64,000 nt of DNA from Planctomycetota bacterium (GCA_013285505.1 CP053450.1:292796-356795), one strand, 5' to 3'. Positions 6,645-27,073 are shown, numbered from the stretch's first letter. The notes: generated by a model from the letters alone, not told the origin. Made by a program: numbers and translations.

Positions 6645-9554
6645 TCAACACCCGGAGGTCCAGAAATTCAGGAAGAGCAGGAAGTCCTGGGTGTTCACCG
6701 TGCCGTCGCCGTTGAGGTCGGCCGAGCACACGCCGCCGGAGCAATCCATCACCCGCTGCACGTTCCAGTCGTTCAGATAGGCAAGGAAGTCCTGCGTGTT
6801 CACCGACCCGTCGCCGTTCCAGTCGGCTTGGCACCCGTCCACCACACTCAGGCCGACGAACAATTCACCGACATACACCTCCCATTCCAGCCCGGTGGGC
6901 AGCTCGGGGAGATCCGCGGCCGCGAAGTCGTTGAAGATCCCCCCCAGCGTGTCGATCAACCGGTAACTCTCCCCGCCCTCGGGCACAAAGCCGTCGATCA
7001 GCGACACCCGCAGCGTGCCGCCCAGCGTCGCCGACCCGGCCACCGTGATCACATCGGTATTGTCCGCACCGCCGACATCGACCAGAAGCTGGCCATCGTC
7101 GAACAGCGTGAGATCGCCCACGAAGTCGAACTGGCCCGCCCGAGCGATCCCCCCGGGGATGACGCGCCCGTGGCTCCTGGTGTCCGGCGCCTCGATCGTC
7201 GCGGGTGCCGGCAGCAGGCCGGGCGCGATCACGCCCTGGATGTCACCGAGCACCGAGTGCAGGTCGAGATCGTCGTCGGATTTGACCTTCGCCCCGTCGC
7301 CCACTCCCAGCGTGCCCGAGCCCTCGATGTCGATCTTCGGCGCCATCGTCGTGCCCGACAAGGCCTCGAGTGTCCCGTCGTCGATCGTCAGCGGCTGCCC
7401 GAAGCTCCAGTCCCCGACCGACTCCACCCTCGCCCCGCCGTCGATGGTCTCGACATCCGAGCCCCACGGCTGGCTGGCCGCGTCCCCCCGCACCCGCGTC
7501 CCCTGCCCCGTCACGCGCGAGACCGTGAGGCCCGGGAACGTGATCGACCCGGTCGTCACCACATCCCAATCACCACCCGTCAGCTCGTTGCCGACGATCT
7601 GCACCACGTCCCTGAAGACCGCGTCGGCCTCGTCCACCACCACCGAACCCCGATTGTCGAAACGGACCGCCGCGTTGTGCCCGAACGACGGGCCGTCCGG
7701 ATCCCCGACCATGTACACGCCCGTGTTGGTAAAGAGCCCGCCCGAGCCCACCGCCTGGTTACCGCCCGATCCCTCGACGCTCCACACCCCGGTGTTCTCC
7801 GCCACCCCACCCTCGAACCGCAGCCCCGAATACTGCCGAACATCGACATCGTTCCGCAACAACCCCCGCACGTCCGAAGCCCCCCCCGCGAGCTGCAGTT
7901 CCGCGCTGTTGATCAGCGTCGTCCCCATGTCGCACCCGTGCATCAGCATCCGCCCCTGCTCGTGGCGGATCTCGCCCGTGCCGATCGCGATCACGTTCTC
8001 GACCTCAATCCCGGTTTGCCCCGCGTCGCCGAGGTCCTCGGTCCGCAGCGTGCCGATCACATTGAGTGTGTGCGTCAGCCCGGCAAAGAGCACCCGCCCG
8101 TCCTGCTCGGCACGCGCCACAACATCCCCCGCGATGAACGTCGTGACGTCGATCCCCCCAAAGACCAGCCTGCCGCCGCACCGGCTCGCAGCACGCACCG
8201 TGCCGCCGGTCCACGATCCCCCACCGATGAGATAAACCTCCCCGTCCAAGGTCTCGATCAACCCGCCCGGTCTCAGCTCGACCGGCACGCTCACGGTGTT
8301 CACCCGGAAGTAGCAGGGATCCCCGTCCTCCCGAGGCACCGCGAGGCGCCCGTGGACGAACAGCGACGGCGTGCTCCCGCCCGACGCCCTCGTGATCGAG
8401 GTGCTCGCCTGCGCGCCGGGCAGGAGCACCTCGCCGCCGGTCTCGATCGTCAGGTCCGCGCCGAGCCGCCAGCGACCCCGCCGGGATCTCCACCACACCA
8501 CCACTCTGCACCCACGACGGCACGCGGAGCGTCGACGACCCCACGTTGGTCAGCTTCCCCCCACGGCGATGCCGCCGGTCCCGGCCGGGGAGCTGACCGT
8601 GGCCGAGTGCAGGGCAGCGTTGCCCGAGACCGTCAGGAGCCCGTCGAGCTGCATGGTCCCGTACACATCCAGCGACCCCGGCGACTCCACCGCCGCGCTG
8701 AGCAGTCCGCTGTACACGTTGCTCCCGTTCCGCAGCTCCACCGTGCCGTCGCCCCGGAACGTCACGCCCTCGATCTCGTTGGGGAAGCTCCCCGAGAACC
8801 ACACCTGCCCGCCCTCGGTCGGCTCGATCGCCGTCAGCGCAGCGCATACTCCCCCGCAGGTCCAGGATCCCGCGGTCGGCAAACAGCAGCCCCGCGTTGG
8901 CCTCGAGCCGGGCGTCGATCCGCGACTGGTCGTTCGGGCCCGTCCCCAGGTGCCCGATCTGCCCGCCCGTCAGACGCGTCAGCCCGCCGCTCACCTCGTC
9001 GAGGTCCGCCGTCGTCCGCAGCGCCCAGCGACCCGGTCACATCCACCACGCCCCCGCCCCACGGGAGCACATCGCCCGACGCCACCAGCGAGCCGGCGAT
9101 CGTGAGCTGCGTCCCCTCCACGCGGATCAGCTCCGCGGAGGTCGCCGACCCGGCGATCCGCGCCCCCGCCCGGGCCGCTGAAGATCGTGCCCTTCGACAG
9201 CGTCGTCACCCCGTCCAGCGTCAGCAACCCCTGCGTCACGACCGAGCGCGTGCAACACCCCTGGAGCGTGAAATTCCGGATCGACGAAGGCTCGGCCAGA
9301 TACAGGCTGCGGCTGTCGAGCACCAACCCCGTGTCGGCCAGCAGCGAACGCACATCGATGTCCGCCGACTGCGCCACCGGCACGGCACCCTGCACCAGCA
9401 CCGCGTCCGCCGACCCCGGCACCCCGTCGGGGTCCCAATTCAGATCCGCAAACCAGTCCGTGCTCCCCGCGCCGCCGTCCCAGGCCTTGCTCTGCCCCAT
9501 CGCCGCACCAGCCGAGCACACCAGCACCGCCGCCGTCACCGCCCGATACCGCAT
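6645..9554 (-). pseudogene. beta-helix/adhesin-like surface protein with dockerin-like tail, tandem paralog of 9573..12482, interrupted by about 5 frame changes between 8470 and 9170
   Basis: Start MRYRAVTAAVLVCSAGAAMGQSKAWDGGAGSTDWFADLNWDPDGVP (9554) parallels the neighbour MRYGSVLLCVVGMAAGHALAQSKMWDGDGGNLLWFDGANWDPDGVP. Sensible protein sequence hops between ORFs 8991..9554, 8834..9121, 8005..8994, 8550..8882, 8005..8994 again, and 6645..8504. The changes are near 9168, 9028, 8855, 8557 and 8470, three of them at G5-G6 runs. The tail is CQADWNGDG...NFWTSGC. Confidence 0.7.
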
Positions 9555-9572
9555 CGCCTCGCTCCTTCCTCT

Positions 9573-12482
9573 CTAGCAGCCGCCGGTCCACGTGTTCAGG
9601 AACAGCAGGAAATCCTGCGTGTTCACCGTGCCGTCGCCGTTCAGATCCGCCGTGCACCCGCCGGAGCAGTCCATCAACCGCTGCACGTTCCAGTCGTTCA
9701 GATAGGCAAGGAAGTCCTGCGTGTTCACCGACCCGTCGCCGTTCCAGTCGGCCTGGCACGAGCCGCCAACCACCGAGAGCGTCACGGTCGATTGGCCGTA
9801 GGCCACCTCCCACGACAGATCGCCGGACAGAGTCGGCAGGTCTTCGGCCCCGAACGCCCCGCTCACGCCCCCCGCGGCGTCGATGAGCGTGAACCTCTCA
9901 CCGCCGACCGGCTGGAACTCGTCGATGAAAGACACCCGCAGCGTCGAGCCGGCCAACAGCACCGAGCCGGTCACGGTGAGCACGTCGGTGTTGTCGTCGC
10001 CGCCGATGTCATAGAGCATCTGAGCATCGGCCGTGCACGAGATCCCACCGAGGACGTCTATCTGCCCCGCCCGGCTCTCGCCGCCGGGGATGAGCCGGCC
10101 CCACAGATCGAGCAGCGGCGTCCGCAGCCTCGCGGGCGCACCGATGATGCCCTGGCTTACCACGCCCTCGATGTCGCCGAGCACCGAATGCAGCCGCACA
10201 TCGCCGGTGGACTCGAGCTCTCTCCCCTCGCCAACCTCGATCGTCCCGCCATCGGTCACGCGGATCGACGGCACGTCCGAATCCGCCTCCACGCGAAAAG
10301 TCCCGCCGCGCACCTCGATATTGTCCGCGAACGACACCCCCGAGCCGTGGACCGTCAGCTCCCCCTCCACGACGGCGATGTCCTCCATCCACGGCGCCGA
10401 GAATCCGTCACCGAACACCCGCGTGCCCGGGCCGAGCGAGCTCACCTGCTGGCCCGGGAACCGGATGACACCGAAGTCCAGCGCCGTCCACGTTCCCCCG
10501 GTGAGCTCGCTGTTGACCAGGTTCGTGCAGTCGTAGAAGTCCAGGCTCGCGTTGCGGACCAGAACCACACCGTTGTTCGTAAATGTCGTGCGAATGCGGT
10601 GGCCGTGGCTCGAGCCCGGATCGGCGATCGCCTCGAAGGTCCCGTTGTTGATGAACGACCCCGAGGGCGAGACCACGTAGTCGCCGCTGTTGGCGTCTAG
10701 ACCGAATGTCCACACCCCCTCGTTGCGGATCACACCGCCCTCGAACCCGAGCCCGCCCGAGAACCGGTGCTCGACCGTGCCCTCGTTGATCATCGTGCCC
10801 GCGTTGACAAAGTACCGCTCGATGGTCAACGCGCCGGTGTTGCGGAAGGTGGACTCCAGCCGGAACCCGTTCGAGTCCCCGTCGTCGATCAACGCCGTGC
10901 CCTCGTTGATCAGTTCGCCCTGCCCGCGCACCAGCGCCCGCAGCACCGACCCCACGTTGTTCTGGCCCGTGACGTTCAGCCGGAACGTCCCGGCCAGGTC
11001 GATCGTTGTGCGCCCCGATCCCCCGCCGAGCCAGAAGTCGCCCATCCCCTCCGCGACCGGCTCGCCCGAGACCGCCCACGCGAGGTTGTCGCCCCGCAGC
11101 GCCATGCCAGCGCCGTCCTCGAGCAGCAGAAACGTCCCGCCGCTCAGCTCGCCGCCGCCCTCGAACCGCAGGAACCCGCCGTACTGCTTCACCTCGCCGC
11201 CGGCCCGCATCTCGAACGGCGGGTGGACCGTCAGCACATCGCGATCCGAGTACGACCCCAGGCTCGCGTCGACGCGAACCTGGCCCAGGTTCACGATGTG
11301 CGCCGACTCGCCGCCCGGGACCGTCACCTCCACCGGCACCTCGTTGAACGAGAGCTGACCGCCGGGCTCGATCGTTAGCTCGTCGGTGAGCGACAGCGTC
11401 GCCCGCGGCTGGAGCGTCCCGCCGCTCTTCACCGCCGCCGGGATCTCCACCCTCGAGTTGACCTGGATGTCCACAAAGCCCGATGTCTCGAACGCGCCGG
11501 AACCGCTCTCGTCCCGCAGCGTCGCGCCGAACAGCGTCATGTGCCCGGTGTTCCGCAGCGTCCCGCCGATCCGCAACGGGTTGCGGATCAGCATCGTCCC
11601 AGGGAAGCTCATGTCCGCCGTGTTCGTCCCGCTGAACACCGCGCGCCCGGTCTGCACATAAACCTCGCCGTCCCCCCGCATGGTCGTGCCGCGGACCTCG
11701 CACTCCGACCCCATCAGCAGCTCGACCGTTCCACCATTCCAAGCCTCGATCGTCCCGCCGTCGAAATCACACTCGCCGGTCAGCTCGATCTCCCCCTGAT
11801 CGGCCAGCACCGCCCCCGCGCCCTCGGTGTCGACCGATCCCACAAACCGCATCAGCCCCGGTTCGGCGATCTGGATCGTGCCCCGGTTCACCACCACCGC
11901 CGGGCCGACCACCCGGCCGATCCCGGAGCCACCGACACCCGTCACCGTCCCCTCCACCACGATCCGCCCCAAGTCCCACGGCTCCAACGCGCCCGAAGAG
12001 GTCATCAGCATCTCCCCCGCGATGATCACCTCGTGCGCATCACGCGCATAGAGCTGCTCGTCATTGAGCACCATCCCCCCCAGCGTCGTCACCCCCGACC
12101 CGCGGAAGCTCGCCGACTTGCCCAGCACCGAAGACCCCTCGACCAACAGCGTCGAGTTGTGCGTGATCTCCGGCCGGCAGCACCCGCCCGTGAACAACCC
12201 CACAATCCGCGAACCCCCCGTGAAGGTCAGGGAGGAGCTGACGATCTCGAGCCCGCTGAGCGCCTCAAGCGAGGCGACCTCCACCGGCTGCGACTCGGCG
12301 ACCACCCGACCCCCCGCGTCCACCAACACGCTCTCGAACGCCTCCGGCACCCCGTCCGGGTCCCAGTTCGCCCCGTCAAACCACAGCAAGTTCCCGCCGT
12401 CCCCGTCCCACATCTTGCTCTGCGCAAGCGCATGACCCGCAGCCATCCCAACCACACACAACAGCACCGACCCGTATCGCAT
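9573..12482 (-). CDS. secreted beta-helix/adhesin-like repeat protein (Gly-rich beta-strand repeats) with C-terminal dockerin-like module
   Basis: Intact 969-codon frame from ATG 12482 (signal peptide MRYGSVLLCVVGMAAGHALAQ; the track ORF starts 10 codons earlier). Long series of G-rich strand repeats. C-terminal region GRLIPGGESRAGQIDVLGG...DNTDVLTVTGSVLLAGSTLRVSFIDEF is followed by CQADWNGDG...NTWTGGC-stop. GGAAGGAG precedes the next gene start (9554), suggesting an operon with 6645..9554. Confidence 0.8.
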   Translation of the reverse strand: MRYGSVLLCVVGMAAGHALAQSKMWDGDGGNLLWFDGANWDPDGVPEAFESVLVDAGGRVVAESQPVEVASLEALSGLEIVSSSLTFTGGSRIVGLFTGGCCRPEITHNSTLLVEGSSVLGKSASFRGSGVTTLGGMVLNDEQLYARDAHEVIIAGEMLMTSSGALEPWDLGRIVVEGTVTGVGGSGIGRVVGPAVVVNRGTIQIAEPGLMRFVGSVDTEGAGAVLADQGEIELTGECDFDGGTIEAWNGGTVELLMGSECEVRGTTMRGDGEVYVQTGRAVFSGTNTADMSFPGTMLIRNPLRIGGTLRNTGHMTLFGATLRDESGSGAFETSGFVDIQVNSRVEIPAAVKSGGTLQPRATLSLTDELTIEPGGQLSFNEVPVEVTVPGGESAHIVNLGQVRVDASLGSYSDRDVLTVHPPFEMRAGGEVKQYGGFLRFEGGGELSGGTFLLLEDGAGMALRGDNLAWAVSGEPVAEGMGDFWLGGGSGRTTIDLAGTFRLNVTGQNNVGSVLRALVRGQGELINEGTALIDDGDSNGFRLESTFRNTGALTIERYFVNAGTMINEGTVEHRFSGGLGFEGGVIRNEGVWTFGLDANSGDYVVSPSGSFINNGTFEAIADPGSSHGHRIRTTFTNNGVVLVRNASLDFYDCTNLVNSELTGGTWTALDFGVIRFPGQQVSSLGPGTRVFGDGFSAPWMEDIAVVEGELTVHGSGVSFADNIEVRGGTFRVEADSDVPSIRVTDGGTIEVGEGRELESTGDVRLHSVLGDIEGVVSQGIIGAPARLRTPLLDLWGRLIPGGESRAGQIDVLGGISCTADAQMLYDIGGDDNTDVLTVTGSVLLAGSTLRVSFIDEFQPVGGERFTLIDAAGGVSGAFGAEDLPTLSGDLSWEVAYGQSTVTLSVVGGSCQADWNGDGSVNTQDFLAYLNDWNVQRLMDCSGGCTADLNGDGTVNTQDFLLFLNTWTGGC

Positions 12483-12679
12483 CTCCAAAGACTCCCAAGG
12501 CCAAACCAACATCCCTCATGCGACAGCCCTCCAAAATAACTGACCCGCACGTGAGGGTCAACGCCAATCCGGCACCAGATCGCCCAACTTGCCCAAGAAG
12601 CCCCGCCGCACGCGCATACCGGACGCATGCCCCCACCACGCACGCGCACCGGACACAGGCCCCACCACGCGAGGCGCAG

Positions 12680-12721
12680 AAAAACCCCGCGTGCCCAGCC
12701 GAATCGGCCGGACACACGGGG
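12680..12721 (-). terminator. terminator-like hairpin downstream of the 12756..14270 gene
   Basis: ccccgcgtgcccagccgaatcggccggacacacgggg has an outer stem with one mismatch and an inner GCCG-AAT-CGGC. It is preceded on the + strand by aaaaa, i.e. followed by TTTTT on the minus strand. Confidence 0.5.
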
Positions 12722-12755
12722 CTCTCTCTCCAGTTCAGTGCGCTACGACCGCGGC

Positions 12756-14270
12756 TCAGTCCGGGCAGCCGAACGACCACACGTTCAGCCAGTCCAGGAA
12801 GTCGAGCACATCGATCGAACCGTCCATGTTGAAATCAGCGCCGGAGTCCTGCGACGCCCAGTCGTTCAGGAACGCCGTGAAGTCCCGCGTGTTGTTGTCG
12901 CCATCCCCGTTCCAGTCGGCCATGCAGTCGTAGGCCACCACCAGGATGAACTCCGTGCCCGCCGGCTCGAAGATCGAGATGTCACTCGCGACACTCAGCG
13001 TCAGGGTGTTCTCCCCGCCGCGGAACAATTCGTGCTCGTCGGTATACACCGGGTCGGGCGTCGGCCAACCCACCACCGGATGGCCGCCGGGGGCGATCCG
13101 GTCGGTGCCGAAGTTGTCGATGTCCTGCTGCTCGATCAGCGGCGAGATCGGCGAGTCGTTCAGGAAGACCACGCCCATGTCGTCCGCGTTCGCCACGCCG
13201 TAGAGCTGTGCGCGCTCAAACTGCGGCGGCAGGAAGAACTCGAACCGGTAGAACGCGCTCTCGCAGTTGTGCCGCGTCACCTCGTCGGCGCCGGTCAGAT
13301 ACTCCTCGCTGTCCACGTACGACCGGTCCAGCAGATCCGTGCACTCGAACGCCGCACGCTGGTGCAGGTCGTGATGACGGTTGACGATCGGCGCCCACGT
13401 CCCCAGCCACTGCCCCGCGTTGATCCGCGAGATCTGCCCGCTCAGCGGCCCCACGATCGGCTCCGTGCTCCCCTCCATCGAGCTCGACAGCCGCAGGAAA
13501 CGCCGCCGCCCGGCCTCATCCCCCCAGCGGTGCGGCAGAGGGTCGTCGTCCCCGATGTCGTAGCCGGTGCCCAGGTGTGCATGCCGCCCCGAACCGCTGT
13601 GGTCCAGCACCACGTTCGAGCCAAACTCGTCGAACCGGTACCACGCCATCATCCCGTCGTAGCTCTCTTCCGAGAAATCGCCCATCATGTCCCTGGCGAT
13701 CTGCTCCTCGGTCCTCGCCTCGCTCCAGACAAGCACATCGTCGAACCCGCCGTGCACGAACTCGCTCGAGCCCGCGTACTCGTTGCCAATCGTCAGCTGG
13801 GCCTGCTCACCCACCGGGTTGATCGGGTCGCCCAGCACCGCCTCGGCGTCCAGCACGCCGTCGATGTAGATCTTGGCCGTCGTCCCGTCGTAGGTCGCCG
13901 CGACGTGGTGCCACTCCCGCAGCGGCAGCGCCGTCGTGCCGACCATGGTCCGCTGCGTCCCGTTGTTGTAATTGATGAAGAACGTCAGCCGCCGGTCCGC
14001 CGGCGAGCGAATCGCAAAGCTGTACGACCCCTGCAGCCGCGAACCCCATGTGACCAGGCCCGACGAATACAGCGGATGGCTGTCGTCCACCCGCACCCAG
14101 GTCTCCAGCGTGACCTCCTCGGTCGTGAAGTCCGCGTACGACACCACCGAGTCGTTCACGCCGTCCAGATCGACATACGCCCCACAGTCACACGGCTGCC
14201 CAAACGCCGCAGCCGCCGCACACGCCAGCCCCGCCGCAAACCCCACCGCCATAGTCGTTCGCTGCACCAT
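12756..14270 (-). CDS. secreted LamG/concanavalin-A-like lectin domain protein with dockerin-like tail (ends GCPD)
   Basis: MVQRTTMAVGFAAGLACAAAAAFGQ is a signal peptide. VTLETWVRVDD...WHHVAATYDGTTAKIYIDGVL...FDDVLVWSEARTEEQI is the typical LamG_3 jelly-roll pattern. The tail is CMADWNGDGDNNTRDF...NVWSFGCPD-stop. Confidence 0.8.
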   Translation of the reverse strand: MVQRTTMAVGFAAGLACAAAAAFGQPCDCGAYVDLDGVNDSVVSYADFTTEEVTLETWVRVDDSHPLYSSGLVTWGSRLQGSYSFAIRSPADRRLTFFINYNNGTQRTMVGTTALPLREWHHVAATYDGTTAKIYIDGVLDAEAVLGDPINPVGEQAQLTIGNEYAGSSEFVHGGFDDVLVWSEARTEEQIARDMMGDFSEESYDGMMAWYRFDEFGSNVVLDHSGSGRHAHLGTGYDIGDDDPLPHRWGDEAGRRRFLRLSSSMEGSTEPIVGPLSGQISRINAGQWLGTWAPIVNRHHDLHQRAAFECTDLLDRSYVDSEEYLTGADEVTRHNCESAFYRFEFFLPPQFERAQLYGVANADDMGVVFLNDSPISPLIEQQDIDNFGTDRIAPGGHPVVGWPTPDPVYTDEHELFRGGENTLTLSVASDISIFEPAGTEFILVVAYDCMADWNGDGDNNTRDFTAFLNDWASQDSGADFNMDGSIDVLDFLDWLNVWSFGCPD

Positions 14271-14570
14271 CGCCCACCTCTCGATCTGCTGCCCGAGTCG
14301 GACCCGGAGCTACGCGCCCCAACGTCCGAGAGCATGTTTTGACTACAACTACATCTTTTACTCCGAAATTGTCGGAGTCAACCACATTCCGGCAGAAAAT
14401 CGGCCTTTAAACACCTTTAAGCGGCCATAATACGTACAAATTCAAAACGGCCTGCAACCAGAAAACCAGAGCAACCCCCGCCCCGCCCCACGCAGCCGCC
14501 AACGGCCTCTCCGACCACCGCCGCCCGTATACTCCCTCCCCAAATCACCCCCCGAGAGAAGGAATCGCGC

Positions 14571-16118
14571 GTGGCAACCAAGCACTACGACCTCATCGTC
14601 ATCGGCGGCGGCCCCGGCGGATACGTCGGCGCCATCCGGGCCGCACAACTCGGCTACAAGGTCGCCTGCGTCGAACGCGCCAAGCTCGGCGGCGTCTGCC
14701 TCAACTGGGGCTGCATCCCCTCCAAGGCCCTCCTCTCCAACGCCGAGCTCATGGAAAAACTCCACGAACGCGAGCTCTGGGGACTCAAGATCAAGGGCGA
14801 GATCGGCTTCGAGTGGGACAAAGTCATCGGCCGCTCACGCGACGTCGCCTCCAAACTCAACAACGGCATCGGCTTCCTGTTCAAGAAGAACAAGATCGAC
14901 CACATCGAGGGCTCCGCCAAGATCACCGCCGCAGCCAAAAACGGCAAGCCCTGCGCCGTCGAGATCTACGACTGCAAAGTCCAGGAAGAACGCACCGACG
15001 CCCCCGCCACCCCCGCAGCCAAGCCCCGCGACACCATCACCGCCACCAACGTCCTCGTCGCCACCGGCTCGGTCGCCCGCGACCTCCCCTTCGCCAAGTT
15101 CGGCTCCGACCCCAAGATCTGGGGCGCCCGCGAGGCCATGTTCAACCAGGAAAAGCCCAAGCGCCTCATCGTCGTCGGCTCCGGAGCCATCGGCATGGAG
15201 TTCGGCTACTTCTACCACTCCTTCGGCACCGAGGTCACCGTCGTCGAGATGCTCGACCGCATCCTCCCCGTCGAGGATGAAGAAGTCTCCAAGGCCATGG
15301 AGCGCCACTACAAGAAGGCCGGCATGACCTTCAAGACCGGCCACGTCACCACCGCCGTCGACGCCAAGGGCAAGACCGTCAAAGTCACCATCGCCCCCTT
15401 CAAGGATGGCAAACCCGACGACTCCAAGGCCGAAACCCTCGAGGCCGACCGCGTCCTCCTGGCCATCGGCGTCACCGGCCGCTTCGACGGCCTCTTCGAC
15501 GACTCCCTCGGCCTCGCCACCGAAAAAGGCCACATCAAGACCGACTACACCCCCAACCACATGGGCGACCCCCAACACCTCGACTACAAGACCAACCTCC
15601 CCGGCATCTACGCCATCGGCGACGTCATCGGCCCCCCCTGGCTCGCCCACGTCGCCAGCGAAGAGGCCATCCTCTGCGTCGAACGCATCGCCTGGCGCGA
15701 CAAGAAGGTCGACCACGAACCCATCCCCATGGACTACACCGTCATCCCCGGATGCACCTACTGCAACCCGCAGGTCGCCTCCGTCGGCTTCACCGAACGA
15801 GCCCTCATCGAACAAGGCCTCAAAAAGGGCCAGGACTACGAGGTCGGCAAGTACAACTTCCAGGCACACGGCAAGGCCATCGCCGCCATGCACCAGGAAG
15901 GCTTCGTCAAGATCATCCGCGGCCTCCCCCGCGGCGAAATCCTCGGCGCACACATCATGGGCGACCAGGCCACCGAACTCATCGCCGAAATGACCCTCGC
16001 CCGCCGACTCGAAGCCACCACCGAAGAACTCATCGTCACCACCCACGCCCACCCAACCATGCACGAAGCAATCCACGAAGCAGCCCTCGCCGCCGAAGGC
16101 CGACTCATCCACGGCTAA
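14571..16118 (+). CDS. lpdA: dihydrolipoyl dehydrogenase (E3 component)
   Basis: GTG start. YDLIVIGGGPGGYVGAIRAAQLGYKVACVERAKLGGVCLNWGCIPSKALL gives the FAD fold plus redox-active CxxxxC. C-terminal HAHPTMHEAIHEAALAA is the dimerisation-domain motif. Confidence 0.95.
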   Translation: MATKHYDLIVIGGGPGGYVGAIRAAQLGYKVACVERAKLGGVCLNWGCIPSKALLSNAELMEKLHERELWGLKIKGEIGFEWDKVIGRSRDVASKLNNGIGFLFKKNKIDHIEGSAKITAAAKNGKPCAVEIYDCKVQEERTDAPATPAAKPRDTITATNVLVATGSVARDLPFAKFGSDPKIWGAREAMFNQEKPKRLIVVGSGAIGMEFGYFYHSFGTEVTVVEMLDRILPVEDEEVSKAMERHYKKAGMTFKTGHVTTAVDAKGKTVKVTIAPFKDGKPDDSKAETLEADRVLLAIGVTGRFDGLFDDSLGLATEKGHIKTDYTPNHMGDPQHLDYKTNLPGIYAIGDVIGPPWLAHVASEEAILCVERIAWRDKKVDHEPIPMDYTVIPGCTYCNPQVASVGFTERALIEQGLKKGQDYEVGKYNFQAHGKAIAAMHQEGFVKIIRGLPRGEILGAHIMGDQATELIAEMTLARRLEATTEELIVTTHAHPTMHEAIHEAALAAEGRLIHG

Positions 16119-16170
16119 CCGGGACCCCCAACCCCGCACCGAGTCCCCACACGCCCCGCCGCATCCTGCC

Positions 16171-16197
16171 CCCTCTCCCGCCCCCGGCGGGAGAGGG
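16171..16197 (+). terminator. perfect 12-bp hairpin just downstream of lpdA (possible terminator or REP-like element)
   Basis: ccctctcccgcc-ccc-ggcgggagaggg lies 53 nt after the lpdA stop. It is followed by ttgggg rather than a T-run, so the terminator role is uncertain. Confidence 0.35.
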
Positions 16198-16264
16198 TTG
16201 GGGAAAGGGCTCCGTCCCCTACTACTTCTTCTCTACCCCACTAACCCCGCACGGCCCAGCCCCC

Positions 16265-16479
16265 CGCCCCAGCGGGGCGCACGACCATTGCCAGAGGCGC
16301 AGCCCCTGGCCACACCCCCACCAACCCAACCGCTCCGAAGGAGCGGCGGAAACACAAACCCCGCCGGCCCCTACCCCACGAGCTTCGACTCCACCAACTC
16401 CGAACGCACCCGCAAGCCCCGGACCCCAACGGGGTCCTCTGCAATAGCCGGGGGTCGCCGCGACCCCCGGAACCACGAG
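16265..16479. repeat. hairpin-array repeat, copy A (about 215 bp)
   Basis: About 90% identical by eye to 18821..19040. Contains consecutive short perfect hairpins: ccccagcgggg, ccgctcc-gaa-ggagcgg, ggacccc-aac-ggggtcc, ccgggggtcgc-c-gcgacccccgg. A further ggacccc-gga-ggggtcc lies at 16491-16507. Confidence 0.7.
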
Positions 16480-16641
16480 CCCTACACCCACGGACCCCGG
16501 AGGGGTCCTCCCTCACCGCTCCCGCACGAACCGCGCCAGGTTCACACCCTTGTTCAACTCAACCGCATATGACTCACTGATCCCCGCCGCAAACACGACG
16601 TCCCGGATCGACCCCTCGCACGCCACCTCAAAGCCACCTCA

Positions 16642-16748
16642 AAGCCACCACCGAAGAACTCATCGTCACCACCCACGCCCACCCGACGATGCACGAGGCC
16701 ATCCATGAGGCGGCATTGGCGGCGGAGGGGAGACTCATACACGGATAG
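16642..16748 (+). pseudogene. orphan duplicate of the last 35 codons of lpdA
   Basis: 16642-16684 is identical to lpdA 16012-16054 (43 nt). The following 64 nt encode the same PTMHEAIHEAALAAEGRLIHG-stop as lpdA but differ at 17 of 22 codons, all synonymously. The fragment is preceded by an 11-nt tandem duplication ccacctcaaag x2 (16623-16644). Confidence 0.85.
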
Positions 16749-16954
16749 TGCCAGGCAACGCCTACCGCAGGCGGCTCCACCTCTGCCACTACGTCGGCTC
16801 GCTCGAAAACCGTATCCGTCTTCTCAACGAGTACGACTGATATTTCCGGCTGACCAACCACGCGCGGTGTCAACGCGGTGAATGTTGGGTTGGCGATGTG
16901 GGGGAGCCACTAGCCCTGCGAGACGGATCGCACGTCAGCAAGAACTGCGAACAA

Positions 16955-17455
16955 TCACGACTCGCTCTGAAAGACAGTCCATTGCTTGTCGAGCGAGTTG
17001 TATTGGAGAAACTCGATGCCGTAGTAGCCGGGTTGATTCATGCGGCGTGATCGCACGCTGAGGAAGTACTCGTCCTCGTAGTTGCGAAGCGCCCCGAATC
17101 GCCATTGACGATCGCCGATCGCTGGAGATTCCAGAGTGGTCATGTATTTCGGCACGAGTCTATCGAGAGAGGGCGGGAGACTGCCATCGTTGTGTGTTTG
17201 GTAGTTGTCAATCGCTGCGATGATGCTTTGGCCGTATTGCTTGGTGTCCTCAATCGCATCCTCGGACCAGTTCTCGCCAAGGCCGAGTGCTGCGGTCTTT
17301 GGTCCCTGCACCAAGCCGGATCGTGCTGCGACCCACCATGTCACACCAACCAATGTCGCACCTAGTCCGAGCAGCACGAGAAGACAAAGAGACAGCAGCC
17401 GCCAGTGATTCCTGACAAACCCACGCGACCGTTCCTCCGGCACCGGGTTGGTCAT
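16955..17455 (-). CDS. membrane-anchored hypothetical protein (166 aa), tandem paralog of 17486..17986
   Basis: I prefer ATG 17455 (MTNPVPEERSRGFVRNHWRLLSLCLLVLLGLGATLVGVTWWVAA, GAGGA 7 nt upstream) over the track start 17476. It has one TM helix, then a divergent C-terminal domain. Lies in the low-G+C region. Confidence 0.7.
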   Translation of the reverse strand: MTNPVPEERSRGFVRNHWRLLSLCLLVLLGLGATLVGVTWWVAARSGLVQGPKTAALGLGENWSEDAIEDTKQYGQSIIAAIDNYQTHNDGSLPPSLDRLVPKYMTTLESPAIGDRQWRFGALRNYEDEYFLSVRSRRMNQPGYYGIEFLQYNSLDKQWTVFQSES

Positions 17456-17485
17456 TGATTGTCCTCGGGAACTCATTCCGACCGG

Positions 17486-17986
17486 TCAAAACGATTCGTC
17501 TTGGAACACCTTCCACTTGTCGCCGAGCGACGTGTAGCGGAACCACTCGACACCGTAGTAGCCCGGTCTTTCGCAGTACGCTGATTCGACCAAGAGGAAA
17601 TACTCTCCGGCGTGTGACCCGAGCGGACCGTACCTCCATCGGCGGTTGCCGGCAACCGGCGGCTCGATAGTAGCGATGTCGTCGGGGACGAGTGCTTCGA
17701 GTGACGGTGGGAGTTCACCCTCCCTTGACTGATACTGTTTGATCGCTGAAATGACAGCGTCACCTCGGCGCTGACTCTCGGACAATGCCTCTTCCGACCA
17801 GTCTTCCCCCAAACCAAGCGCCGCAGTCTTTGGTCCCTGCACCAAGCCGGATCGTGCAGCGACCCACCATGTCACACCAACCAATGTCGCACCCAGTCCG
17901 AGCAGCACGAGAAGACAGAGAGACAGCAGCCGCCAGTGTTTCCTGACAAACCCACGCGACCGTTCCTCCGGCACCGGTTTGGTCAT
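17486..17986 (-). CDS. membrane-anchored hypothetical protein (166 aa)
   Basis: MTKPVPEERSRGFVRKHWRLLSLCLLVLLGLGATLVGVTWWVAA. The start overlaps the upstream stop (ATGA at 17983-17986). The first ~65 codons are nearly identical in nucleotide sequence to 16955..17455. Confidence 0.75.
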   Translation of the reverse strand: MTKPVPEERSRGFVRKHWRLLSLCLLVLLGLGATLVGVTWWVAARSGLVQGPKTAALGLGEDWSEEALSESQRRGDAVISAIKQYQSREGELPPSLEALVPDDIATIEPPVAGNRRWRYGPLGSHAGEYFLLVESAYCERPGYYGVEWFRYTSLGDKWKVFQDESF

Positions 17987-18393
17987 TGACTGTCCTCGAT
18001 GATAAGTACGAGATCAACGATGTCCAAGAGATTAACCACGCCGTTGGTATTGAGGTCCGCAGTCTGAAACGCTTGACCGAGTTCTTCAACTGTCACAAGC
18101 AGATCGTCCAGGTTGATCATGCCGTCGCTGTTGGCATCACCGATAGGTGCGGGTTCTCCATCGTCTGGACACGAATCGGGGCGTATTGATGGCGGCACCC
18201 GCGTGTCGCAAGGCGACTTGATGAAACGCCCATCATCCAAGGCCTCGAGTCGTCTTCTGAGCAGTTCTTCGTAGGAGCAACCATCAAGAAGACACTGCAG
18301 CGCAGTGTTTCTTGCAACCTGATTATTGTACTGGTCGATCCACGTATCGAGCCCCTCCTCACCCCGCTCATGGATATCCCCAATCTCCTTGGC
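17983..18393 (-). pseudogene. 5'-truncated ORF ending in a classical (non-Cys-bracketed) dockerin/EF-hand pair
   Basis: The coding-like, low-G+C part reads ..DTWIDQYNNQVARNTALQCLLDGCSYEELLRRRLEALDDGRFIK...DANSDGMINLDDLLVTVEELGQAFQTADLNTNGVVNLLDIVDLVLIIEDSQ-stop. There is no in-frame ATG/GTG/TTG after the G+C-rich repeat block that replaces its 5' end. The rest of track ORF 17983..19245 is a translation of repeats. Confidence 0.4.
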
Positions 18394-18395
18394 AG

Positions 18396-18456
18396 GCAGG
18401 TGGCACCGACCCGCACCCCCGCAGCCGCACCCACCCGCTCCAAAGACCCGTCCCGC
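18396..18456 (-). repeat. remnant copy of the 3' end and downstream junction of the DUF2726 gene
   Basis: gcaggtggcaccgacccgcacc + cccgcagccgcacccacccgctccaaagacccgtcccgc matches 21503-21525 plus 21628-21673 (DUF2726 codons ..RDAFLERVCAAAGVR..), with the intervening ~100 nt missing. Confidence 0.55.
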
Positions 18457-18730
18457 CCCCGCCACCCCGCTTAAAAGAGGCCCAAGGCGCAAGCCTGGGC
18501 GTTCTCTATCCTCCACTCGAGGCCACCCGACCCCACACCCAACCACTCCGCCACCGTCCACCTCACCCTCCGCGGAACCAACCGCCCAGCAGCGCCCACG
18601 GCCCAGCCATCCCATTGGCCCTACGACCCCGCCGCCCCGGTCGGGCGCACAACCCCGCCGCCCCCGAGGAATGCACCATCCCACCACCCAAGCAAGGCCC
18701 ACGACCCCCTCCGCCCCTGATGGACGCATG

Positions 18731-18865
18731 ACCCCTCCCGCCCCAGCGGGGCGCACGACCGTTGCCAGAGGCGCAGCCCCCACCGCCCCAGCGGGGTGCA
18801 CGACCGTTGCCAGGGACGCAGCCCCCACCGCCCCAGCGGGGCGCACGACCATTGCCAGGGGCGCA
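18731..18865. repeat. 45-bp tandem repeat, 3 copies
   Basis: cgccccagcggggcgcacgaccgttgccagaggcgcagcccccac repeats at 18731, 18776 and 18821 with a few substitutions. A single copy of the unit starts the 16265 repeat. Confidence 0.85.
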
Positions 18866-19040
18866 GCCCCTGGACACACCCCCACCAACCCAACCGCTCC
18901 GAAGGAGCGGCGGAAGCACAAACCCCGCCAGCCCCCACCCCACGAGCTTCGACTCCACCAACCCCGAACGCACCCACAAGCCCCGGACCCCAACGGGGTC
19001 CTCTCCAACAGCCGGGGGTCGCCGCAACCCCCGGGACCAC
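18821..19040. repeat. hairpin-array repeat, copy B (about 220 bp)
   Basis: Collinear with 16265..16479 and carries the same four hairpins. Confidence 0.7.
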
Positions 19041-19072
19041 GGGTGAAGTCGAGCATCGTTCGCGAGCGACCC

Positions 19073-20017
19073 CTAAACCACACGGCTAATCCACGCTGCG
19101 TCAAGAAACGCAGTCCGGTCGGCCCAGTAGCATCGGGAGAATCCGTGGACCGTACCAGCCAGAGTGGTTTGGCACACTTGGACGGCCCGCGGCCGGTGTA
19201 CCTCAGGGATTGATTGGTGAATTGCATGCCCGTCGCTGTGAACAATCAACCACAGAGGTAGTCCATTGGCCCGCGTGCAGCTCTTGAGCATGCTCTTACG
19301 GGCCTTCGTGGCCACATGCTCCCGCACCCAATGTCCATCCAACCCAACCACTCCTCCCCGCAGATTGCTGCCCACATCCGGTATCAGTTCACCGACACCC
19401 TGCAACTCCATGTGGTCGAGATACTTCGCACACAATGGGTATTCCGAATCAACGAGGTGGATGTCCCGCGTCCACCTGTTCAACTGACCGACACTCTGCG
19501 CCTTGCCGAAGCGGATCCTGCACGTCTCACAGAATTCCAATTCCGGGCCCACAGCAATAATGGAACTCAGTTCACCGATGAATCTCGAGTGGTCTCGGGT
19601 GGTCGGTACCGCTTTGACTTTGGTCTTTCCTGGCTCAGCGCGATGGATCTCGCGATACCGCAGCGAGATGCAGTATCCCTTGCGTTCGAGCAACTTGTAC
19701 AAATCGGCTTTTACAGCCCGTCGCAGTTTGAAATCACGTTCCATCACATCGCCACGGTCGCGACATGGTGAGTACCCCAGCAACTCAATAGCAACTGGAC
19801 CCACCGCCGTGCTCAACACTCCGTCTACCGTGGCTCCGCCAATTTCGACGACCACCTTCTTCGCGACAGCCTTCTCAATCGGTATCAGCTTGTAGCTCGC
19901 ACCGAATCGTCTGCGCATGGCCTTGCAGAACTCGGACAGCACGATCTCTTCGCGCCGCCGAGTGCCGGTGTCACCCCCGTAGCTGAATACATCTCGTTGT
20001 GGATCGAACGATGTCAT
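19073..20017 (-). CDS. hypothetical protein (314 aa), no family recognised
   Basis: Only long ORF in this low-G+C stretch. Starts MTSFDPQRDVFSYGGDTG. No Walker, recombinase or nuclease signature that I can defend. Confidence 0.6.
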   Translation of the reverse strand: MTSFDPQRDVFSYGGDTGTRRREEIVLSEFCKAMRRRFGASYKLIPIEKAVAKKVVVEIGGATVDGVLSTAVGPVAIELLGYSPCRDRGDVMERDFKLRRAVKADLYKLLERKGYCISLRYREIHRAEPGKTKVKAVPTTRDHSRFIGELSSIIAVGPELEFCETCRIRFGKAQSVGQLNRWTRDIHLVDSEYPLCAKYLDHMELQGVGELIPDVGSNLRGGVVGLDGHWVREHVATKARKSMLKSCTRANGLPLWLIVHSDGHAIHQSIPEVHRPRAVQVCQTTLAGTVHGFSRCYWADRTAFLDAAWISRVV

Positions 20018-20167: not shown

Positions 20168-20839
20168 CTACTCTTCGCGCAACTGTTCGAGAGACAATGG
20201 ATCCCGCATTACCCCATCCTCGTCCGACACCGCCGTCAACCTACAGTGTTTGCTCGCTGGCTCCTCAACCAGTGAGACTTCCTGGACATCGCACTTTGTA
20301 ACGATGCGCGCGCACAATTCGCCCATGTATGGGCGGCCTTTGATGTGATCACACTCCCCGTATGCTGCGTGGCAGATCGAGCACTCTGACTCCTCGACAA
20401 TAAATGACACACTAGCAAACACTTGTTTCGGGAAACACAACCGTTCTAGTGCATGGAGTCGTGGGATATACAATAACTCCAAACGTGCGGCAACTTCGTG
20501 CGCCTTTACCGCATGACTCGCTGCCATTTGGGCGTTCACCAGATGGGTCCAGGCTCGACCGGGAGCGTCCTGCTTCAGCGCGATGTACATGTCCAGTTCA
20601 TTTGCTAATGCATCCAACATGTACTCGTAGGCTAGCAGTTCATTAGCTATCGCCTCATCCCTTGTTGCAACAGCGTCGCCCTTGAGCCGTGTTGTTCGCT
20701 CTATCATCAGCCGCAGTTGTTTCGAGTGCTCGGTCTGCAGACGAGTAGAACGACACAGTACTGCGAAACGACTGCACTCGTCAGCGACAGTATCAAACTC
20801 TTGACGATATGTGTCAAGTATGTCAGGAGTTAGAGTCAT
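20168..20839 (-). CDS. hypothetical protein (223 aa) with helical N-terminal half and Cys/His cluster CxxC-x6-CxH-x10-C
   Basis: I prefer ATG 20839 (MTLTPDILDTYRQEF, GGAG 11 nt upstream) over the track start 20890. Motif ESECSICHAAYGECDHIKGRPYMGELC, then CDVQEVSLVEEPASKHC. Overlaps the upstream gene by 17 nt. Confidence 0.6.
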   Translation of the reverse strand: MTLTPDILDTYRQEFDTVADECSRFAVLCRSTRLQTEHSKQLRLMIERTTRLKGDAVATRDEAIANELLAYEYMLDALANELDMYIALKQDAPGRAWTHLVNAQMAASHAVKAHEVAARLELLYIPRLHALERLCFPKQVFASVSFIVEESECSICHAAYGECDHIKGRPYMGELCARIVTKCDVQEVSLVEEPASKHCRLTAVSDEDGVMRDPLSLEQLREE

Positions 20840-21326
20840 TGCTCGCTTGCTCCACAATCCGACCGAACTCTTTAAGCCCCGCCGGGTCACCGCTGTATCT
20901 GAATCGCTTGTATTTACCTGTGTATCGGTCTTCTACCACGATCGAGAACTTGACTCGCCGCTCTCCGCCGATGCCCTTAAAGAAGTCAGTGGCATAGTTG
21001 GCGATCACACTCAGTGCAACATTGACGGCAGCAGCGTTTTCGGTGAGCAGCGAAATGCCAATGAACAAGGCGGGCAGTGTCAACTCAAAGGCGTTTTCTT
21101 GCAATACAAGAATTGTTTGTTCAGGTGACTCGATACGGTCTTCGACAATACCAGACTGTCGGAACAAGATGCGCAGAGTAGACACACTGCTCTCGTGAAG
21201 TAGCGCGGACGGACTGTCTGCTGTTGCCAGATTGCGCGGAAGAAAGGCAATCCCTTGTGGCATGTTCATCCCAAAGGCCTTTAGTTGTGTGTCAACATTT
21301 ACATAATCGTCGACTTCGATTGGCAT
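20823..21326 (-). CDS. hypothetical protein (about 167 aa) with one central hydrophobic segment
   Basis: ATG 21326 (MPIEVDDYVNVDTQLKAFGMNMPQG); the track uses a TTG at 21404. Hydrophobic stretch LTLPALFIGISLLTENAAAVNVALSVIANYA. About 43% G+C in the hand-counted lines nearby. Confidence 0.5.
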   Translation of the reverse strand: MPIEVDDYVNVDTQLKAFGMNMPQGIAFLPRNLATADSPSALLHESSVSTLRILFRQSGIVEDRIESPEQTILVLQENAFELTLPALFIGISLLTENAAAVNVALSVIANYATDFFKGIGGERRVKFSIVVEDRYTGKYKRFRYSGDPAGLKEFGRIVEQASNDSNS

Positions 21327-21555
21327 TAGTGACCTTTCAACTTCGGTAAATTGCCGCGCAGAGATCGACAAAGACGAACCTCGCCAGAGAAGATATTCTA
21401 GCAAGAAGTATGGCGGTTGGCGCTGACAAGACTGTGCTGTGTTGTTACCGGCTAGCCCCTAAATGGACTTAAACACACGAACTACCTAGTTCCCATCCCC
21501 CGGCAAGTGGCACCAATCCGCACCACCAACCTCGGCTCTGCAAAATCGGTGCTCC

Positions 21556-22119
21556 TCACACCTCCTTCGCCAACACCCCCGCCACCCCCTCCAACTCATA
21601 CCGCTGCCTCCCCTCCACCCGCACCAACCGCACCCCCGCAGCCGCACACACCCGCTCCAAAAACGCATCCCGCTCTCGCCGCCGCTGCTGCCCATGCGAC
21701 GAGTCATCAAGCTCAACGCAAGCCAACACCCGCGTCCGCGCATCGATGATCACAAAGTCGAACGTCTTCCGGTCCACCTTGTTCCGCCACTTCTGCCGCT
21801 CCCCCCGCTCCAGCCCCCGCCGCGGCTGCACCACCGCCCCCACCGGCACCTGAAACGCAATCCGCGCCTCCGGACCAAACACCGCCGCCACCGCCGGCTC
21901 CAGCGTCGCAAAGAACCGCAGCTCCGCATCCGTCAACAACCCCCGCTTCGCCTCATACGGCAGCGGTCCCTCAGCCCCGCCCGCAACATCGCCCCCGGGC
22001 TCATCCCCACCCCCGCCGCCCTGCTGCCTGGCCATCGCGACCGCGATCGCGACACCCACCACCAGCACAACACCGACCACCACTACCAGTCCAACCACCA
22101 CCAAGACCCAGTTTGCCAT
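21556..22119 (-). CDS. DUF2726 (restriction-endonuclease-like) domain protein with N-terminal TM helix
   Basis: MANWVLVVVGLVVVVGVVLVVGVAIAVA is a TM helix. YEAKRGLLTDAELRFFATL...KVDRKTFDFVIIDARTRVLACVELDDSSHGQQRRRERDAFLERVCAAAGVRLVRV matches the DUF2726 pattern I remember. Start chosen at ATG 22119 rather than 22164. Confidence 0.75.
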   Translation of the reverse strand: MANWVLVVVGLVVVVGVVLVVGVAIAVAMARQQGGGGGDEPGGDVAGGAEGPLPYEAKRGLLTDAELRFFATLEPAVAAVFGPEARIAFQVPVGAVVQPRRGLERGERQKWRNKVDRKTFDFVIIDARTRVLACVELDDSSHGQQRRRERDAFLERVCAAAGVRLVRVEGRQRYELEGVAGVLAKEV

Positions 22120-22542
22120 TGACCATTCCCCGCACGCGGCATGCGAATCCTGCCCTCCGCGCAACCCACACTACCCCACCACCCGACCCGCACGCAATGT
22201 CCAGAATCCCCTCAATCCCACAACAATCTGACACCTACATCCACACCTGCGCGCAACTTCGTGGACCTCCCCCAAAACCAAACCAACCTCACCCCACCCC
22301 GCCCTTATCCTGCGCACAGACCCATGCCCACCACCCACCCCATCGCCACACCCAACAGAGCCGCGGGCGCAAGCACGCGGCAGGGGTCGCCACAACCCCA
22401 GCACCACCCACACTCCCAAAGCCCCCAACACCAACCGCAATCACCCACCCTCCAAAACAGAGCCGCGGGCGTCAGCACGCAGCAGGAGGCCAGCACCCCG
22501 CCGCACCCCCCTTCCACCTCTCCCCCTCCTCCCCAGTGCCTG

Positions 22543-23274: not shown

Positions 23275-23286
23275 CACCCGATTCCT

Positions 23287-24462: not shown

Positions 24463-24697
24463 GGCTGGTTGGGCAATCTGCGGAGTGTGCCGCGACGATA
24501 GGAGGGTTTGGTACGAATCCGGCGCACGCGGCAGCCGAAAGGGGCCGGAAACCCCGCCGGAGGCCCGAGAAGCGTCCGATTCGCCGGCGGGGAATGGCAT
24601 TGGCCTTCCGGACGTTGGCTCTGACGGGCAAGACGGTTGACTCAGGATGCTGAGTTGGTATCACTAGGGACGTCACGCCACACCACACGAGGTTCAT

Positions 24698-27043: not shown

Positions 27044-27073
27044 CGGAGAGCCCCCGTCAAGGAGATACTCATT

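Follow-up and report, generated by a model that had tools for sequence, protein, structure and literature searches.

We analysed a 64,000-nt stretch of DNA from a Planctomycetota bacterium (GCA_013285505.1 CP053450.1:292796-356795), hereafter called the window, in which the intact gene for dihydrolipoyl dehydrogenase, lpdA (14571-16118, plus strand), is followed at a short distance by a second copy of its own 3' end. This second copy is a dead, non-coding orphan. We suggest that it is the scar of an exchange of lpdA alleles at a hypervariable slot bordering the gene, brought about by a combination of homologous and illegitimate recombination. We put the probability of this class of explanation at about 0.6, and the exact order of events is much less certain. 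The proposal builds on the anatomy of the two copies, a series of lpdA alleles in related strains, the foreign codon style of the orphan, a patchwork of gene fragments beside it and the fact that no recombinase was found; from these we infer the direction and the number of the events. Known processes explain the observation; it adds one more case to the gene ends orphaned by recombination at hypervariable loci, this time next to a housekeeping gene of an uncultured planctomycete.

The duplicated 3' end of lpdA

The lpdA product (515 aa; Pfam Pyr_redox_2, Pyr_redox and Pyr_redox_dim) shares 97-98% amino acid identity with proteins from metagenome-assembled genomes (MAGs) of Phycisphaerales, which their sources name dihydrolipoyl dehydrogenase; an exact look-up of the window protein returned no record. 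A 43-nt stretch within the gene, spanning its HAHP codons (16012-16054, plus strand), recurs at 16642-16684 on the same strand with 43 of 43 nt identical, as the initial annotation had noted, and the match breaks off at both ends. These two cores are direct repeats 630 nt apart, with 587 nt between them. In searches with exact sub-mers, neither the 43-mer nor its terminal 15-30-mers occurred a third time in the window.

Beyond the core, the gene closes with the segment that we call tail1 (16055-16118, plus strand), which holds the last 21 codons and the stop of lpdA in native codon style. The corresponding segment of the orphan, tail2 (16685-16748, plus strand), belongs to no open reading frame (ORF) and spells the same protein end in a foreign codon style. 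Both tails translate as PTMHEAIHEAALAAEGRLIHG-stop and, read in the frame of lpdA, the two copies both give (E/K)ATTEELIVTTHAHPTMHEAIHEAALAAEGRLIHG-stop. The 34 residues encoded by both ends are identical, and incoming and displaced variants of the protein were not seen. At the nucleotide level, 18 of the 64 positions after the core differ. The changes fall in 16 sense codons and in the stop (17 of 22 codons) and are synonymous without exception, which agrees with the count first made from this sequence; 16 of the 20 degenerate codons have been changed between tail1 and tail2. The chance that 17 random sense-codon substitutions would all be silent is about 5e-11.

Codon usage shows which of the two tails is the foreign one. 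Third codon positions of lpdA are occupied by C 381 times, by G 78 times, by A 55 times and by T twice, and the body of the gene uses GCC 45 times and GCG never, with the same pattern for GGC and GGG (46 and 0), CTC and TTG (33 and 0) and ACC and ACG (31 and 0); ATA, CAT and AGA are absent. Codons that are rare or absent in the body, where their frequency is 0.027, make up 12 of the 21 in tail2 (P = 4e-14) and 2 of the 21 in tail1. The codon log-likelihood under body usage is -13 for tail1 and -49 for tail2. By these measures tail2 is foreign in codon style and tail1 native. The initial annotation had described the second tail in similar terms and had added that it abuts a low-G+C island. The codon style stands, and so does the adjoining island, with a G+C content of 0.53-0.58 in 17-18 kb and in 19-22 kb to the right of the orphan, but the island is not continuous, being interrupted by a native-style stretch at 18-19 kb. 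On a larger scale, the coding strands of the window are strongly C-rich. The GC skew lies at about -0.2 to -0.47 over 7-24 kb and then at about +0.2 over 24-51 kb, with a cumulative minimum near 23-24 kb and a change of sign near 23900, which may reflect no more than a switch of gene orientation or may be a replication landmark.

The left side of the orphan is damaged. An 11-nt tandem duplication, CCACCTCAAAG in two copies (16623-16633 and 16634-16644), sits at this junction, where it had been reported before, and its second copy reaches 3 nt into the core. If one 11-mer is taken out, 17 of the 21 nt that precede the core agree with lpdA; farther left the match falls to 9 of 23 and homology is gone. 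The upstream boundary of the orphan is thus marked by a residual match of 17/21 and an 11-nt duplication. The damaged edge itself (16610-16641, plus strand) is an lpdA-like 21-nt segment split by the first copy of the 11-mer, and is a probable illegitimate junction. Because the lpdA match persists at 17/21 to the left of the core, we place the left limit of the orphan at about -125 from the gene end, and the orphan would correspond to the last ~105-125 nt of lpdA. It has no start: the reading frame meets a stop upstream, and among ORFs of at least 40 aa none ends at 16748.

An independent Logan contig, L167 (SRR17893156), matches the window over 16643-17789 with 98.8% identity, and its end coincides exactly with the core (L-numbers designate the loci and contigs of relatives that were compared with the window). 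Its orphan differs from that of the window by one synonymous change and one M-to-L replacement, and the core is retained at 42 of 43 positions. The orphan of L167 has changed as expected of a sequence that is now neutral.

Tail alleles and parallel orphans in related genomes

The comparison covered about 165 lpdA loci for the tails and about 170 loci for the REP-like block described below. The window belongs to a bacterium of the Phycisphaerales (Planctomycetota), and its closest relative is a TARA scaffold (L163). Further loci come from MAG JB054 (L001), from JGI and ENA metagenomes (L083, L164-166, L169 and L170) and from ENA (L171), and L002, L003 and L004 represent more distant relatives. 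The initial annotation had looked to relatives that carry the duplicated tail without the island as evidence against its own reading. In L163, which is 97.5% identical to the window at the nucleotide level across 10920-16212, both the orphan and the island block are missing, so that this relative does not provide such evidence.

The 43-mer is invariant in every allele of the clade (L001, L083, L163-L166 and L169-L171). A 43-nt stretch would stay identical by chance with a probability of ~0.2-0.27 at 3-4% divergence and, since this one also encodes the conserved HAHP motif, its identity in the two copies needs no special mechanism. Perfect identity of the 43-mer is therefore not diagnostic and reflects the clade-wide invariance of the HAHP-coding stretch; gene conversion between gene and orphan may reinforce it.

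Divergence is concentrated at the very end of the gene, as lpdA bodies differ by 1.8-3.9% among strains and the 64-nt tails by 6-25%. In L001, foreign-style codons extend to gene position 1500 and native ones follow. In L171 the switch comes at position 1524, and the sequence is then native, including the downstream DNA. The tail of L163 is a fine mosaic of native and foreign codons, and in L083-like genes the foreign style runs as far as the stop codon, after which non-native DNA begins. The functional tails of L083, L164-166, L169 and L170 contain 10 rare codons out of 21. It is also this lineage that best matches the orphan, a point raised in the initial annotation: among ~165 lpdA loci, the closest nucleotide match to tail2 is a functional L083-type tail (54 of 64 positions). 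Like L163, the L083-like contigs have a single copy of the lpdA end.

Foreign-style tails thus circulate on working lpdA genes of sister strains, which accounts for the differences in tail2 being only silent. These alleles have no fixed crossover point from native to foreign style; the switch points vary among strains, and a single fixed crossover site is therefore disfavoured. Where only patches are foreign, as in L001, L171 and L163, gene conversion or recombination between alleles at a later time would fit.

Orphan ends of lpdA are present in other genomes as well. In L004, a decayed orphan (91 nt; E = 2e-23; 83.5% identity) sits about 1 kb beyond the end of lpdA, between modules resembling repetitive extragenic palindromic (REP) sequences and a Vsr gene. 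Here the foreign-style end is on the gene (6 of 35 codons rare, vs 10 of 484 in the body; P = 8e-5) and the orphan is in native style. The left boundary of the L004 orphan falls within ~10 nt of that of the window. In a distant planctomycete (L103), the lpdA end is duplicated over 237 nt from a left boundary at -234 (11237-11473 and 15446-15682), and the copies differ at 17 positions, 15 of them silent, one changing Y to H and one abolishing the stop. This duplicate flanks a 4.1-kb cassette of carbamoyltransferase, DUF5989 and GDSL-lipase genes, in which no mobility gene was found. A segment of L001 (11762-11818) is a probable remnant of an lpdA orphan, judging from its position and strand; its match (E = 6e-4) is at a level that background hits also reach.

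The slot between lpdA and DUF2726

The compared genomes are collinear to the left of lpdA, and again rightward from a DUF2726 gene (21556-22164, minus strand; Pfam DUF2726, 2.6e-26) and an RlmL-like gene (23287-24600). The DUF2726 gene, which is convergent with lpdA, is 96% identical in L163 and 82% in L083. Between these two border genes lies a slot that has been replaced repeatedly in the clade, and its content differs in every strain. It holds a C5 methylase gene and a restriction endonuclease/HEPN-like ATPase gene in L001, Vsr and C5 methylase genes in L004, genes for an LVIVD beta-propeller and DUF1963 proteins in L083-like strains, two unknown genes and DMP19 in L163, and a gene for a NOV_C protein in L003. 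The classes of cargo thus comprise restriction-modification genes, nuclease-like genes and small paralogous genes. The block in the window contains no restriction-modification genes.

The ORFs of the window between 16.9 and 23.4 kb were scanned with Pfam, NCBIfam, PADLOC and PHROGs, and several of them, 19073-20017, 20168-20890 and 20823-21404 included, could be assigned to no family. Profile scans revealed no integrase, recombinase or transposase in the island of the window or in those of L001, L003, L004, L083 and L103; for the L163 island, precomputed gene-call annotations and a PHROG scan restricted to two ORFs showed no recombinase either. No integrase recurs among 82 ORFs downstream of lpdA in ~50 loci of Phycisphaerae. 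None of the island ORFs could be assigned to a defence system, DUF2726 alone giving a marginal match. In the comparison with L163, homology of the DUF2726 gene begins ~14 nt inside the end of the ORF, too slight a pattern to speak for raised divergence at its 3' end.

Together with other gene fragments, the orphan belongs to a patchwork of 2.3 kb bracketed by 218-nt REP-like direct repeats, and distinct cargo follows it at 16749-18733. A 5' pseudo-fragment of a TrpS-like gene (class-Ib aminoacyl-tRNA synthetase; 16750-16863, plus strand), reading ...LHLCHYVGSLENRIRLLNEYD*, abuts the stop of tail2, and has 72-77% nucleotide identity to the N-terminal coding region of tRNA-synt_1b genes in L081 and L082. 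It is followed by the last ~55 nt of an Rce1-like (CPBP) gene (16858-16915, plus strand), reading ...NAVNVGLAMWGSH* and 89% identical to the end of the gene in L081. The two fragments are fused at the microhomology (ATG)CACGC, ~200 nt from the orphan boundary. If a TrpS-paralogue-Rce1 locus of the L081/L082 type were duplicated in tandem or circularised, such a head-to-tail fusion of TrpS and Rce1 would be expected.

Two tandem paralogous small genes come next (16955-17476 and 17486-17986, minus strand; 173 and 166 aa), 91% identical over 212 nt and without a match in Pfam, NCBIfam, PADLOC or PHROG. Members of this family sit between the TrpS-like and Rce1-like genes in L081 and L082. In L081 an array of five to six such small genes (6976-10501) lies downstream of a DUF6973 gene, an arrangement that may be likened to a toxin-immunity array. 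The patchwork also includes an EF-hand/dockerin-like end and a pseudo-fragment of the 3' part of DUF2726 (18403-18466, minus strand), 86% identical to 21621-21683 and reading RDGSLERVGAAAGVR where the intact gene reads RDAFLERVCAAAGVR. Orphan 3' parts of DUF2726 also occur in L163 (7592-7774), L083 (14775-14889) and L001 (14605-14775). L001 seems to keep the fragment only, without an intact gene. Both of the convergent border genes thus leave 3' stubs inside the slot.

To the left of the orphan, the 523 nt that follow the lpdA stop form what we call the native spacer, which is shared with strains that have no orphan. The spacer begins with native lpdA downstream sequence that includes a G+C-rich hairpin (16119-16225, plus strand) and has homologues in L001 (92%), in L163 (within the 97.5% block) and in L171; no second copy of it follows tail2. 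It continues with a first REP-like hairpin block (16260-16477, plus strand), the left direct repeat, which is 94% identical to 18824-19041. The right direct repeat is a second REP-like array (18734-19041, plus strand) made of three 45-nt units and the 218-nt block. Related modules sit downstream of lpdA in L163 (a single module; 5290-5470) and in L004 (11700-12500). We considered that the REP-like block might be a generic dispersed repeat, and rejected this on finding it, among ~170 loci, only downstream of lpdA (twice in the window, and in L004 and L163). Two motif probes from the first block had no other match in the window. Against the loci fetched by then, BLAST of the spacer matched L004 and otherwise no more than two short segments of the native downstream sequence next to it (L001 and L082). 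Rfam families gave three weak matches in 12-26 kb, all of them below the gathering score, and a tRNA or tmRNA gene as a target was not found. Beyond this block, the minus strand of 16478-16609 resembles the final ~38 codons of a gene; for the 164 nt that precede the core of the orphan, no nucleotide or protein relative was found in the fetched loci or the protein database.

Several features of the surroundings can be mentioned here. Two independent short-read assemblies break at the end of lpdA, the L171 contig stopping 115 nt after the gene and L167 at the 43-mer, which suggests strain-level heterogeneity or repeats in natural populations. Just upstream of lpdA, a gene on the minus strand (12756-14270) encodes a 504-aa protein with a GC-type dockerin end that is called Laminin_G_3 in relatives. 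It is present in L002, L083 and L163 and absent from L001, a second presence/absence polymorphism flanking lpdA. In or beside an ORF without family match (22113-23354), a 48-nt unit is repeated three times in tandem (22871-23014; 77-90% identity). A 73-nt unit repeated four times (26884-27994) encodes dockerin-like D-x-N-x-D-G repeats at the ends of the ORFs 24698-27043 and 27074-28000, and similar dockerin-like units are scattered in the window and in relatives.

Origin of the orphan

The comparisons show that the slot is exchanged repeatedly, most likely by recombination with DNA from strains of closer and lesser relatedness, and that the extreme 3' end of lpdA travels with the adjacent cargo. 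The tails therefore diverge at synonymous sites alone, each having belonged to a functional gene, and tail2 is one of these foreign-style tails. Its silent differences reflect purifying selection before orphaning, and the changes in L167 reflect drift after it. We propose that one lpdA end replaced another in an ancestor of the window strain via a homologous crossover anchored in lpdA, and that the exchange was closed illegitimately on its other side, with a join of the microhomology type at about -125 of the resident lpdA. As a result of that illegitimate join, the old lpdA end and its cargo would have been pushed downstream instead of being deleted. In the most economical version, the resident allele would have been L083-like, with a foreign tail and cargo, and the incoming fragment L163-like, bringing the native tail, the hairpin and the REP-like block. 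Alternatively, the exchange may have run in the reverse direction, with a resident native end and an incoming foreign one, or the orphan-bearing block may have spread by a single crossover in the 218-nt REP-like repeats that bracket it. The initial annotation had itself allowed for a history of more than one event as a fallback, and this is essentially what the comparison of strains shows.

A number of points weigh against the recombination scar. A functional gene with exactly tail2 was not found, the exact pattern of tail2 had no match in viral or metagenome contigs, and that of the core had none in viral contigs. The orphans of L004 and of the window start at nearly the same position of lpdA (~-104 to -125), which random illegitimate joins would not predict. 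To account for this shared boundary, one would have to invoke either a hotspot of G+C-rich microhomology (CGCCCGCCG) or a junction inherited from a common ancestor, the right part of the orphan being replaced later. The contig L167 ends at the core and hence covers none of the DNA to its left, the left junction (16478-16641) included. The island ORFs without an assigned family leave room for an unrecognised recombinase.

The initial annotation had favoured site-specific integration, with the 43-mer as an att-like core. In this scenario, an element with a tyrosine or serine recombinase would have inserted at the 3' end of lpdA and supplied a replacement tail; its integrase would have been lost, would act in trans or would have escaped recognition, and two elements may have accreted in tandem, each tail then belonging to the body on its right. 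Where an attP site restores a gene end, identity of 100% gives way abruptly to saturated synonymous divergence, as it does here. The similar left boundaries of the orphans in L004 and the window, the foreign tail followed directly by an island in L083-like strains and the REP-like blocks beside orphans in two genomes would also agree with integration. However, the profile and annotation scans described above revealed no recombinase in the islands of the window, L001, L003, L004, L083, L103 and L163, and none that recurs among the 82 downstream ORFs. The DNA between the copies is not an element but the native spacer found in orphan-less strains. The tails stand in reverse of the order expected after one-step integration, with the native tail on the gene and the foreign one distal, a misfit that had already been remarked upon; L004 does show the expected order. 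No distal native tail was found at the far end of any island, and sub-mers, tblastn of the 35-aa tail and sensitive blastn detected no distal tail copy in the window or within 10 kb in relatives. Breakpoints lie at position 1500, at 1524 or at the stop codon, or form a fine mosaic, depending on the strain. The 43-mer contains no inverted repeat of at least 4 nt and is invariant in the clade anyway, and the neighbours of the orphan are pieces of unrelated genes, with microhomology at one of their junctions. The single-copy empty site of close relatives (L163 and L083-like strains) fits integration and a recombination scar alike. We therefore do not retain the att-like core and consider site-specific integration unlikely.

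The remaining alternatives appear less probable still. A diversity-generating retroelement, with its pair of template and variable repeats, would place a copy of a gene's 3' end just downstream of the gene, as is seen here, but the changes are not adenine-specific (A or C in one copy is mostly G in the other) and are all silent, and no reverse transcriptase was found, which refutes it. A present function of the orphan, for instance as a small RNA or as a landing pad for island capture, would fit the fact that the foreign patches of L001, L171 and L163 all lie within the stretch covered by the orphan, as if it had donated sequence. Its neutral change between strains, its absence from L163 and the lack of an Rfam family at gathering score argue against such a role, and we regard retroelement and function together as very unlikely. 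An assembly artefact, in which two strain haplotypes were joined through the shared 43-mer, might be suspected since both types of allele coexist in nature and assemblies break at this place (L171 and L167). Yet what comes before the orphan is not the lpdA body but 164 nt of unique sequence, a damaged 21-mer and the 11-nt duplication, and a path through a shared k-mer could not have made this structure. L004 and L103 show similar structures in independent assemblies and L167 confirms the right-hand junctions, so that an artefact is highly improbable. Finally, tandem duplication of the lpdA end and spacer in situ, with subsequent divergence in place, would account for direct repeats 630 nt apart and for the doubling of the REP-like block (16260-16477 and 18824-19041). 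A dead copy should, however, gain non-synonymous changes and indels, and all 17 sense-codon differences are silent. They also run toward codons that the genome avoids, the same foreign states are found in functional alleles of other strains, and the hairpin region was not duplicated along with the tail. The silent-only pattern refutes this possibility, to which we give almost no weight, unless gene conversion from an external functional allele is added, which leads back to the recombination scar.

It is also conceivable, if improbable, that a dedicated and so far unrecognised system inserts DNA at ~-104 to -125 of lpdA, using a trans-acting recombinase or one of a novel family, possibly with the REP-like hairpins, and supplies a recoded gene end, or that the orphan is kept as a landing pad and sequence reservoir. 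The recombination scar does not dispose of three observations: the boundary shared with L004, the association with REP-like blocks and the island ORFs that have no assignment. With such a landing pad or reservoir, if there were one, strains could take up and exchange islands while an essential gene always stayed intact.

The recombination scar has several partial parallels. In enterobacteria, gnd lies beside the rfb cluster for O-antigen and is a housekeeping gene that hitch-hikes with a hypervariable locus, showing raised diversity and mosaic alleles. The diversity of lpdA is likewise raised where the gene adjoins an exchanged locus, and its alleles are mosaic, but the effect is confined to the last 64 nt and comes with an orphan copy. 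Orphan 3' ends are known from Rhs, contact-dependent inhibition (CDI) and type VI secretion system (T6SS) effector-immunity loci, for which C-terminal displacement by homology-facilitated illegitimate recombination was proposed (PMC5361080). As in that model, a conserved upstream part would anchor the incoming DNA, and the old 3' end would be pushed downstream, without a start, together with its linked genes. No mobility genes were found, 3' fragments accumulate, at least one junction appears illegitimate, and the orphan of the window is followed by small paralogous genes that are arrayed in relatives. In contrast to those polymorphic toxin loci, lpdA encodes a housekeeping enzyme and both tails specify the same protein, so that the hitch-hiking would be purely synonymous; moreover, in this phylum the recombination mechanism is a putative one.

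Insertion with long target duplication has been described for restriction-modification and other genes that lack mobility genes (Furuta, Abe and Kobayashi 2010; PMC2853133). That type is characterised by direct repeats of more than 30 bp that flank an insert of less than 20 kb, with one copy in a relative and no transposase or integrase found. The two REP-like repeats of the window (94% identity, 2.3-kb block; a single module in L163) and L103 (237-nt repeats, 4.1-kb cassette), which exemplifies the type cleanly for the end of lpdA proper, have these properties, and restriction-modification genes fill the same slot in L001 and L004. Unlike in that type, the lpdA copies of the window flank native spacer only and the cargo lies outside them, there are two alleles rather than one duplicated target, and the block holds no restriction-modification genes. 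In Escherichia coli, integration of e14 or phage 21 in icd leaves the pseudogene icdC (Hill et al. 1989; PMC13626634). The replacement icd end of e14 differs mostly at synonymous sites, with two conservative substitutions reported, and recombination between the copies gives rise to chimeric functional genes (PMC13626634). The presence of a housekeeping gene end in two copies with mostly silent differences is common to both cases. In e14, however, a 15-kb prophage with its own recombination system separates the copies and the foreign end is on the gene, whereas the window has 587 nt of native spacer, the reverse order, no recombinase that was found and strain-variable breakpoints.

These comparisons indicate that a perfect core followed by a recoded tail is no proof of an integrase site, as the displaced allele of a hitch-hiking gene end gives the same signature. 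Gene flux in this uncultured marine lineage of Planctomycetota has a hot spot in the lpdA-DUF2726 interval, where no mobility gene was recognised. The locus also provides a clean natural case in which native and foreign codon styles form a mosaic in the final 64 nt of a housekeeping gene, the strains being otherwise 96-98% identical in lpdA.

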